From Thermodesulfobacteriota bacterium (GTDB lineage: Bacteria > Desulfobacterota > Desulfobulbia > Desulfobulbales > SURF-16), in NCBI GenBank assembly GCA_039715015.1, contig JBDLIE010000008.1:20660-84659 (forward strand): a stretch of 64,000 nucleotides of DNA. The letters run 5' to 3'. The notes beneath the pieces are model-generated. The model worked only from the letters and a program-made list of their open reading frames with translations. It was not told where the DNA came from and ran no database searches. Below, one piece after another: positions 59,530 to 60,078 of the stretch. A program made the position numbers and the translations under genes. Positions within the stretch are counted from its first letter, which is position 1, and each line of letters begins with the position of its first letter.

Positions 59530-59640
59530 AAATAACCAGGATACAATCAACATGGCATGGCCAGCGGCAAACTGCTCTAGGAGAAATTCTGGTTGAGCAG
59601 TCTTGTTCCGGACATGGGTTCTAACATGCCGGGAAGATTG

Positions 59641-59714
59641 ACCGGTTAGCTCAGAGGGTAGAGCACCACTCTTAGGAAGTGGCTGTCGCAGGTTCGATTC
59701 CTGCACCATGGGGA
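59641..59714 (+). tRNA. tRNA-like element / probable pseudo-tRNA (canonical D, anticodon and T arms; acceptor strands not complementary; anticodon UAG with short variable loop)
   Basis: UAGCUCAGAGGGUAGAGC D-arm. Anticodon arm CCACU-CUUAGGA-AGUGG. T-arm GCAGG-UUCGAUU-CCUGC. The 5' GACCGGU and 3' ACCAUGG strands cannot form a 7-bp stem. Confidence 0.5.
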
Positions 59715-60078
59715 AAATCCCCACCAATCCCTAGCACGGATTTGTTGTAAGATTGAAGACGATGGAGCAGTGATAATGACCATGGCAGCCTCCAGGCAAT
59801 AGGGCCTGGGGAAGGGAAAAATAAAGGCCATGTCGCCGAAGAGACTGTTTTGCGGCACGCCGACAAGGCAGAGTGCTTAGATTCATAAGAGAGGGGCGCG
59901 CTAGTAGCTAAGGGGCTTTTTCTCAAAAGGAATAAAAAGCCCTGTCAGGAACGGCGATGCCCCACATGAGCAGCAAAGCTTTTCAGGAATGCCTGTTGCG
60001 GTTTCGCAAGTTTTGCAGCGACCTCGGTTCATCGTTGCCCATCGTCTTCCTTAAGAAAAATTGAAAGAGGTGTTTGTT

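Follow-up and report, generated by a model that had tools for sequence, protein, structure and literature searches.

A tRNA-like element of the putative b7a-tRNA class in the leader of an rtcB–slipin–rtcA operon from a Thermodesulfobacteriota bacterium

The wider question addressed here is which substrates the bacterial RNA repair enzymes RtcB and RtcA act on, and what roles are played by the accessory RNAs and scaffolds encoded in their operons. An abstract of 2016 by Burroughs and Aravind is said to name Rot/TROVE and SPFH/Band-7 proteins as scaffolding cofactors, with Y RNAs and a novel tRNA-like molecule as their cognate RNAs. In the literature searched, the Ro60/Y RNA branch has been studied, and the parallel Band-7/tRNA-like branch has only been predicted. 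The Discussion of Wang et al. 2018 (10.1101/312249), which attributes b7a-tRNA to Burroughs and Aravind 2016, describes it as a predicted non-coding RNA with a strong likeness to tRNA, which lies beside a Band-7/SPFH protein and an RtcB ligase, is proposed as cognate RNA for the Band-7 scaffold and occasionally swaps partners with YrlA; by the same Discussion, it was without experimental validation at that date. No other paper in the literature searched names b7a-tRNA. In Salmonella, the regulator RtcR is activated via its CARF domain by tRNA fragments ending in a 2′,3′-cyclic phosphate (PMC7790460), and in Anabaena the slipin gene alr0740, rtcB, an HNH gene and a long tRNA array belong to one TrcR stress regulon (PMC10272220, Table 1). 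We analysed a window of 64,000 nucleotides (nt) from a Thermodesulfobacteriota bacterium (GenBank assembly GCA_039715015.1, contig JBDLIE010000008.1, positions 20,660 to 84,659), in which a tRNA-like element lies upstream of an rtcB–slipin–rtcA operon. This element is very probably a tRNA mimic of the b7a-tRNA class, judged by its sequence, fold and neighbours against the properties given in that Discussion.

59640..59712, + strand: tRNA-like element, very probably of the b7a-tRNA class (Rfam tRNA match; covariation in 23 sequences)

The element comprises a full D arm, the anticodon and T arms, a variable loop of 5 nt and an acceptor of 3 bp. The textbook D, anticodon and T arms claimed in the original prediction, which was made from the letters of the window, were confirmed, with coordinates right within one or two bases. 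Following U8 and A9 (59647–59648), the 4-bp D stem (GCUC, 59649–52; GAGC, 59661–64) encloses an 8-nt D loop, AGAGGGUA; the 5-bp anticodon stem (CCACU, 59666–70; AGUGG, 59678–82) carries the 7-nt loop CUUAGGA (59671–77); and the 5-bp T stem (GCAGG, 59688–92; CCUGC, 59700–04) carries the T loop UUCGAUU. The triplet UAG at the anticodon position (59673–75) and the class I variable loop of 5 nt (CUGUC, 59683–87) were likewise as predicted, and so was the acceptor with three of seven pairs: the 5′ strand GACCGGU (59640–59646) and the 3′ strand ACCAUGG (59705–11) pair only at 5–68, 6–67 and 7–66. The element has no CCA and no usable discriminator context. ARAGORN, a program named with the original prediction, called no tRNA in the whole window, the element included, its sole call being the transfer-messenger RNA (tmRNA) at 49606–49966. 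The Rfam tRNA model scored 50.9 bits on the element, against a gathering score of 29 (E=5.6e-8 across the whole window), with a match over model positions 5–66 only. Because of this score and E-value, together with homologues in more than 30 other loci, the tRNA likeness of 59640–59712 is far above chance.

Homologues came from three sources. Four loci with the element were derived from RtcB (L002, L003, L004 and L006, the last ending at a contig edge), a DNA pattern combining the D arm with block A, a conserved block 5′ of the element, yielded 29 metagenome loci, and a slipin-protein search added two further loci (L110 and L111). The RtcB- and slipin-derived loci are free of search-pattern bias. 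From these, a core alignment (A3) of 23 non-identical sequences and an alignment for a long-range helix (A4) of 20 sequences were made. The element-bearing loci belong to Desulfobacterota, to planctomycete-like contigs (one of them a Pirellulales metagenome-assembled genome, MAG) and to an assembly labelled Alkalispirochaeta. In viral contigs, the DNA pattern had no match and the slipin no close relative, on which grounds a phage origin was rejected.

Across the 23 core sequences, U8, A14, G15, G18, G19, C48, G53, U54, U55, C56, A58 and C61 were invariant, so that the tertiary contacts U8–A14, G15–C48, G18–U55, G19–C56, U54–A58 and G53–C61 were kept throughout. The D stem showed no variation. 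The anticodon stem was 97% paired with changes on both sides at four of its five pairs, the T stem was 100% paired with two pairs changed on both sides, and the inner acceptor pairs 5–7/66–68 were 100% paired, with 7–66 being U-A in some sequences and A-U in others. Of the four outer acceptor pairs, only 39% of cells were paired. Covariation at homologous loci, which had been proposed as a check, was hence found in three helices (anticodon stem, T stem and inner acceptor). Column entropy was 0.08 bits in the D arm, 1.7 bits in the anticodon and 1.4–1.7 bits in the outer acceptor. At the anticodon position, the family had UAG, GAA, UAC, CAG, CAA, AAG, AUG, UUU, UGA, UGU, ACG and other triplets; the loop itself varied in length (4 nt in L004, 6 nt in L111), and some members had G33 or C33. 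Loops were identical in pairs of loci with leaders 81–86% identical, whereas one pair with 91% identical leaders differed at five of seven positions; a steady diversifying change of the loop was not accepted on this mixed evidence.

These alignments show purifying selection, accompanied by compensatory changes, on the tertiary core and on three helices, and they show that selection keeps the L-shaped body, decoding and, in many lineages, the acceptor end having been given up. The element is therefore neither a working tRNA-Leu nor a decaying pseudogene. Several proposals of the original prediction fell at this point. A tRNA gene disrupted at its 5′ end, or a pseudogene, does not agree with a short acceptor that is a family trait, and neutral decay is contradicted by the D-arm entropy and the compensatory changes in three helices. 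Identity as a Leu isoacceptor was lost with orthologues that have GAA, UAC, CAG, AAG, UUU, UGA or UGU, among others, or loops of 4 or 6 nt. Pairing of an upstream CATG with the 3′ CAUGG was not upheld either, the upstream ACATGG being invariant and the 3′ side having the non-complementary CCAAUU, CCAGGG and CCACUG. The proposal of a tRNA-mimic domain within a larger structured RNA was supported, as the covarying core lies inside a conserved leader of approximately 450 nt that has a further covarying helix.

We then compared the locus with the properties ascribed to b7a-tRNA in the citing Discussion. The likeness to tRNA in sequence and fold was seen in the Rfam match, the covarying core and the invariant contacts; the Band-7/SPFH neighbour was found as a slipin gene in the same operon (61387–62490), the presence of which the element tracks; and the RtcB repair neighbourhood was found in the flanking rtcR, rtcB and rtcA. 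None of the observations conflicts with placement in that class. The element is a real, selected, non-decoding tRNA mimic, of a kind already predicted, with new details. The features beyond the citing text are the 3-bp acceptor in rtcR-linked copies, the unconserved anticodon loop, a position at the end of tRNA arrays, and a 5′ block together with a second domain. New here are also a long-range helix, supported by covariation and without counterpart in Rfam, and a connection with YrlA-like RNAs.

Across phyla, the element goes with slipin and not with rtcB. Among the closest RtcB loci, the element was found in all five that have slipin in the rtc operon (the window, L002, L003, L004 and L006), and was absent from L001, L007 and L008, which are rtcR-rtcB-rtcA loci without slipin. 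In 20 of the 29 metagenome loci, slipin was the next gene, mostly 530–630 nt downstream, and in those 20 neither rtcB nor rtcR was detected, except an upstream rtcR in L100. rtcB came first in two of the 29, being followed by slipin in L098 and cut off within rtcB by the end of L103. One locus (L085) had enough downstream sequence but neither slipin nor rtcB, and the other six were too short. In L111, the order was rtcR, sigma-54 site, element, slipin, rtcA and rtcB. As a separate observation, L085 (150–1376) keeps the block, the element and the first hairpins and then diverges, with no slipin, and resembles a rearranged copy.

In high-GC contigs of planctomycete-like type, among them the Pirellulales MAG, the element was the last member of arrays of 16–34 tRNAs with an HNH endonuclease gene, followed by slipin (L086, 2138–7088; L096, 7555–12495; L088; L110, 2351–7603); the preceding gene was usually tRNA-Cys. 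Several of these array-linked copies had five or six acceptor pairs, several encoded CCA, and full-length Rfam tRNA matches reached 60–63 bits; array-linked relatives were called as tRNAs by ARAGORN. The likeness to long tRNA array systems, such as that of Anabaena, is that homologues of the window element come last in HNH-bearing arrays. Unlike the array loci, the window has no array, and only the terminal element, the leader and slipin are present, under RtcR/sigma-54 control. A shared array–HNH–RtcB–slipin stress module would fit the co-regulation in Anabaena. No paper in the literature searched connects tRNA arrays to SPFH proteins. The same arrays also contain class-I-shaped tRNA-Leu genes of 74–77 nt with good acceptors and the anticodons UAG, UAA, CAA and GAG (L086, 4398–4471; L096, 8689–8765, 8777–8851, 8941–9016 and 9509–9585); a short variable region is unusual for tRNA-Leu of bacteria.

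Around the element, the leader of the window contains the following further features.

59561..59570, + strand: leader motif CCAGCGGCAA, conserved in the window, L002, L003 and L004; variant CCAGCGAC in L111
59605..59625, + strand: block A, GTTCCGGACATGG followed by nnTCTAAC, conserved in the RtcB-derived L002–L004
59629..59645, + strand: spacer hairpin CCGG-GAAGAUUGA-CCGG, from the letters and the minimum-free-energy fold; its 3′ strand overlaps acceptor positions 3–6
59710..59722, + strand: hairpin P2, GGGG-AAAAU-CCCC, directly 3′ of the element
59845..59967, + strand: second structured leader domain, closed by a long-range helix (alignment A4, 20 sequences)

The long-range helix pairs CUGU (59845–48) with ACAU (59964–67) and GCGGCA (59852–57) with UGCCCC (59958–63). 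In the 20 sequences, 92.5% of cells were paired and eight of ten pairs were changed on both sides, with exchanges such as AUGU/ACAU, AUAU/AUAU, ACGC/GCGU, GCAC/GUGC and AUGC/GCAU. The covariation score was 0.608 against 0.291 ± 0.026 for shuffled alignments (0 of 500 reaching it) and slid controls were 26–60% paired, in a comparison that favours the helix, which was derived from the same 20 sequences with motif-anchored columns. L110 and L111, both found independently, had the helix as well. Two copies of GCGGCA(A) lie in the window leader and in those of L002–L004; in the window they are at 59561–59570, within the motif CCAGCGGCAA that was seen only at rtcR-linked loci, and at 59852–59858, the second copy being the helix strand. 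The first copy (59563–69) was rejected as a competitor for the UGCCCC strand, since in L004 the second copy covaries with the partner and the first does not. Against Rfam, the leader gave no family beyond the tRNA match, neither at gathering scores nor at E<=10, and no terminator or anti-terminator was found in it.

A hairpin stood at the place of P2 in all homologues, with at least seven different stems (GGGG/CCCC, UGGAG/CUCCA, GUCGG/CCGAC, GCCGG/CCGGC, GCAGG/CCUGC, GGAU/AUCC and GGCG/CGCC); in the window it is the downstream hairpin originally placed at 59711–23, with GGGG at 59710–13 and CCCC at 59719–22. In several loci (L069, about 2500–2530; L083; L086; L095), the hairpin after the element often has the 7-nt loop CUGGUAA (or CUGAUAA, CUCGUAA, CUGUUAA), which resembles an anticodon loop and recurs in distant lineages. 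The CCGG hairpin originally placed at 59630–47 is likewise present (CCGG 59629–32, CCGG 59642–45), but it is not a conserved feature: most homologues have small spacer hairpins, at differing positions and with sequence not kept. As single-sequence folds also disagree, this hairpin was rejected as a YrlA-like closed acceptor.

Block A, written GUUCCGGACAUGG-nn-UCURAC, lies 22 nt 5′ of the element in the window and 22–30 nt across loci; the slipin-derived loci have looser forms (GTTCCGTGAATGG in L110, GTATCGAACATGG in L111). In high-GC members, GUGU precedes block A, echoing the GUGUGUU plus T stem of Bacteroidota, e.g. GUGUGUUCGGGG in L076, where the position of block A is taken by a canonical T arm with GUGUGUU before it (L076, 2420–2450; L061, 2455–2485). 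Block A may be a relic of a YrlA-type first T arm, which we offer as a lead from sequence comparison. Read as a T-arm hairpin, G-UUCCGGA-C, it has mostly pair-compatible upstream bases, one invariant strand and a loop without R57/A58, and L110 does not fit. Its pairing with the CCAUG before block B fits some sequences, block A itself being invariant. A small open reading frame (ORF) from the ATG in block A was discarded, as its stop, both in the window and in L083, is the TAG of GGUUAGCUC and its frame is lost in L086 and L081. Taken together, a multi-domain RNA of approximately 430–500 nt, not in Rfam, may be present, in which block A as the possible T-arm relic, the tRNA-like domain, the covarying hairpin and the helix-closed domain precede slipin/RtcB modules, with related forms in Bacteroidota and as the terminal unit of tRNA arrays; we give this composite proposal slightly less than an even chance.

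YrlA (RF02553) resembles the window element in its conserved D and T arms, in having no conserved anticodon and no free CCA end, and in its occurrence in RtcR-controlled RtcB operons. It is the tRNA-like partner of Ro60/Rsr in rsr-yrlBA-rtcBA operons, whereas the window operon has no rsr. Its order is permuted (T arm, closed acceptor stem-loop, D arm) and includes a Ro-binding stem, whereas the window element has the canonical order of D, anticodon and T arms. The YrlA model had no match in 59300–60100 at E<=10, and this result and the canonical arm order ruled out the window element as a YrlA. The leader showed neither a Ro-binding stem nor the motif GNCGAAN0-1G; the operon comprises rtcB, slipin and rtcA, and the rest of the window was only partly screened for TROVE.

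The Bacteroidota loci (L036, L049, L061, L069, L071 and L076) have the order [RNA]-slipin-rtcB with a divergent WYL/WCX regulator, the RNA lying at about 2330–2600 in each. In these slipin–RtcB operons, a YrlA-like RNA occupies the place of the window element. Its order is T arm, stem-loop, D arm, linker, second T arm and hairpin. The Rfam YrlA model matched L061:2438–2542 over its full length with 33.9 bits (E=1e-5 over the searched stretch), which does not reach the gathering score of 69, and a profile of the window-type element matched the part from the D arm to the second T arm. No Ro60/rsr gene was seen in these Bacteroidota loci. If true, the multi-domain RNA proposal would suggest that the canonical-order b7a-tRNA and the permuted YrlA descend from one ancestor in which two T arms flanked a single D arm.

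The genes around the element and the promoter-like site are as follows.

57745..59337, − strand: rtcR, CARF-domain sigma-54-dependent activator (Pfam RtcR 2.5e-81, Sigma54_activat 3.4e-47; PADLOC RtcR--CARF_AAA_HTH, 835 bits)
59514..59529, + strand: sigma-54 promoter-like site TGGCACGGCAGCTGCA (pattern TGGCAC-N6-TGCW)
60079..61269, + strand: rtcB, RNA 3′-phosphate/5′-OH ligase (Pfam RtcB 1.4e-109)
61387..62490, + strand: slipin/SPFH (Band-7) protein, soluble, with N-terminal beta repeats (Pfam Band_7 2.6e-27)
62640..63653, + strand: rtcA, RNA 3′-terminal phosphate cyclase (Pfam RTC 4.1e-79 and RTC_insert)

The plus-strand operon thus has the order rtcB–slipin–rtcA, with rtcR divergent, and the element sits in the 723-nt gap between them, on the coding strand. 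rtcB starts 367 nt 3′ of the element, in line with the involvement of RtcB suggested originally; its ORF is open from TTG at 60061, and homologues align with ATG at 60079. The best matches of the window RtcB were Desulfobulbaceae MAG proteins, with 76% identity, a similarity that places the organism in the Desulfobulbales. The pattern TGGCAC-N6-TGCW had two matches in the 64 kb against 0.4 expected, one being 59514–59529; the other, TGGCACGGTGGTTGCT, is at 3226–3241 on the minus strand. The site lies approximately 125 nt 5′ of the window element and 121–129 nt in L002, L003 and L004, and is also found upstream in L111. As this site is upstream, the element is expected near the 5′ end of the RtcR-dependent transcript, of which we infer it to be the 5′-proximal portion. 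PADLOC gave no defence-system match for slipin or RtcB.

The slipin had no transmembrane segment (top 19-residue hydropathy, 1.28). Its closest solved relatives by sequence were stomatins (entries of up to 16 chains) and QmcA (26 chains). The structural model, with a predicted local distance difference test score (pLDDT) of 83, carries two additional beta repeats at the N terminus besides the SPFH domain and long helices, and its Foldseek matches were the ring- or cage-forming stomatin, HflK/C, prohibitin, erlin and flotillin. A soluble slipin ring or cage with RNA as its partner is plausible. The longest Foldseek alignments were with major vault protein (396–479 columns, E about 1e-10, TM-score about 0.38). 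The vault particle consists of major vault protein, with its SPFH-like shoulder, TEP1, with its TROVE domain, and vault RNA. The likeness lies in the beta repeats, SPFH domain and long helix, and in a cage protein paired with a small structured RNA; it differs in that the TM-scores are low and that a closed cage and RNA binding are only predicted for slipin. A slipin of enterobacteria, 35% identical, is paired with an RlaP nucleotidyltransferase (L113, 4376–4904, Escherichia coli STEC639; L114, 4540–4989, Citrobacter freundii). This pair stands behind a sigma-54 site and a leader with GUGUUCCGUCAG and one T-arm-like hairpin, but lacking both the D arm and the anticodon arm; 1629 of 5426 complete E. 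coli genomes contain at least 80% of this leader, unannotated, and it has no Rfam match.

For the function of the element, we tentatively favour, by analogy and at rather less than even probability, a role in trans as a cofactor or ligand of slipin and RtcB, in which slipin and RtcB/RtcA would form a repair complex and the element would partner slipin. RNA damage would generate tRNA fragments with 2′,3′-cyclic phosphate, which would switch on RtcR through its CARF domain. The induced operon transcript would begin with the tRNA-like RNA and the second structured domain, and the tRNA-shaped domain, excised or retained in the leader, would serve the soluble, presumably ring- or cage-forming slipin as RNA partner, in a proposed parallel to the Y RNA YrlA with Ro60. 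The tRNA-like surface would aid RtcB/RtcA on cleaved tRNAs, or compete with tRNAs for the damaging nuclease. Four points weigh against this cofactor role. A 3-bp acceptor is a poor RNase P substrate, which makes the release of a discrete RNA doubtful; rtcB lies between the element and slipin in the window; the second domain and block A imply more than a simple tRNA mimic and also suit a cis-acting leader; and block A and the D arm are conserved by construction in the 29 metagenome loci, both being in the search pattern.

The cofactor role and the alternatives of a cis-acting leader and of a decoy or sensor are not mutually exclusive. As a cis-acting leader, the tRNA-like fold and the helix-closed domain would form one structured 5′ untranslated region that steers the processing, stability or translation of the rtcB-slipin-rtcA mRNA; it could, for example, be a protected 5′ end, an entry point for RNase P/Z or RNase E, or a feedback site for slipin/RtcB. 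The element always lies on the coding strand, 350–730 nt 5′ of the first ORF, further conserved blocks and the covarying long-range helix share the leader, and the rtcR-linked copies, without acceptor stem and encoded CCA, may never be released. We nevertheless consider this reading unlikely, if well short of negligible, as neither a terminator nor an anti-terminator was found, the ribosome-binding site is not obviously sequestered, and the array copies have the 5–6-bp acceptor and, in several cases, the encoded CCA that a released RNA would have; the related YrlA RNAs, moreover, act in trans (PMC4201824).

Less probable still, and in our view improbable, is a decoy or sensor for anticodon nucleases, in which the mimic absorbs a tRNA-cleaving toxin, or its cut 5′ half with cyclic phosphate feeds the CARF domain of RtcR. 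RtcR binds tRNA 5′ halves with cyclic phosphate, including that of tRNA-Leu(UAG), and YrlA has been suggested as a competitive nuclease inhibitor (PMC7790460); the anticodon loops differ among lineages, even within the one pair with 91% identical leaders. However, members with loops of 4 or 6 nt, or with G33 or C33 for U33, are unlikely anticodon-nuclease substrates, the constancy of the loop in sublineages at 81–86% leader identity indicates that its change is not steadily fast, and the UAG shared with the Salmonella ligand is one among many anticodons of the family. An odd but genuine decoding tRNA-Leu(UAG), or a recent tRNA pseudogene or integration scar, is very improbable. The high tRNA model score and the array relatives, with their ARAGORN calls and full-length Rfam matches, would agree with it. 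Against decoding stand the three acceptor pairs, the missing CCA and discriminator context and the largely unpaired outer acceptor of the family, a class I variable loop despite a Leu anticodon (bacterial tRNA-Leu is class II), and orthologues at the same position with other anticodons or loops other than 7 nt. A pseudogene is contradicted by a core conserved with compensatory changes across loci with RtcB 65–76% identical, and a scar by the absence of any integrase or direct repeat seen near the element.

The locus offers a clean, compact example in which promoter, RNA, ligase, scaffold and cyclase stand under one RtcR switch. The comparative data show that the elbow, the three helices and the second domain matter, and that the anticodon and outer acceptor do not. 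In view of the ties to long tRNA arrays and to the translational-stress regulon of Anabaena, several stress circuits may reuse one RNA–protein module; if true, the multi-domain RNA would physically join the array–HNH–RtcB–slipin stress regulon.

Elsewhere in the window, after the tmRNA gene (49606–49966; tag ADDYAYAVAA), the GC content is low (38% in 50001–52000), and this low-GC stretch encodes a Fic/DOC-family protein with a DeoR-type helix-turn-helix at 50134–51291 on the minus strand. The stretch may be an island inserted beside ssrA.

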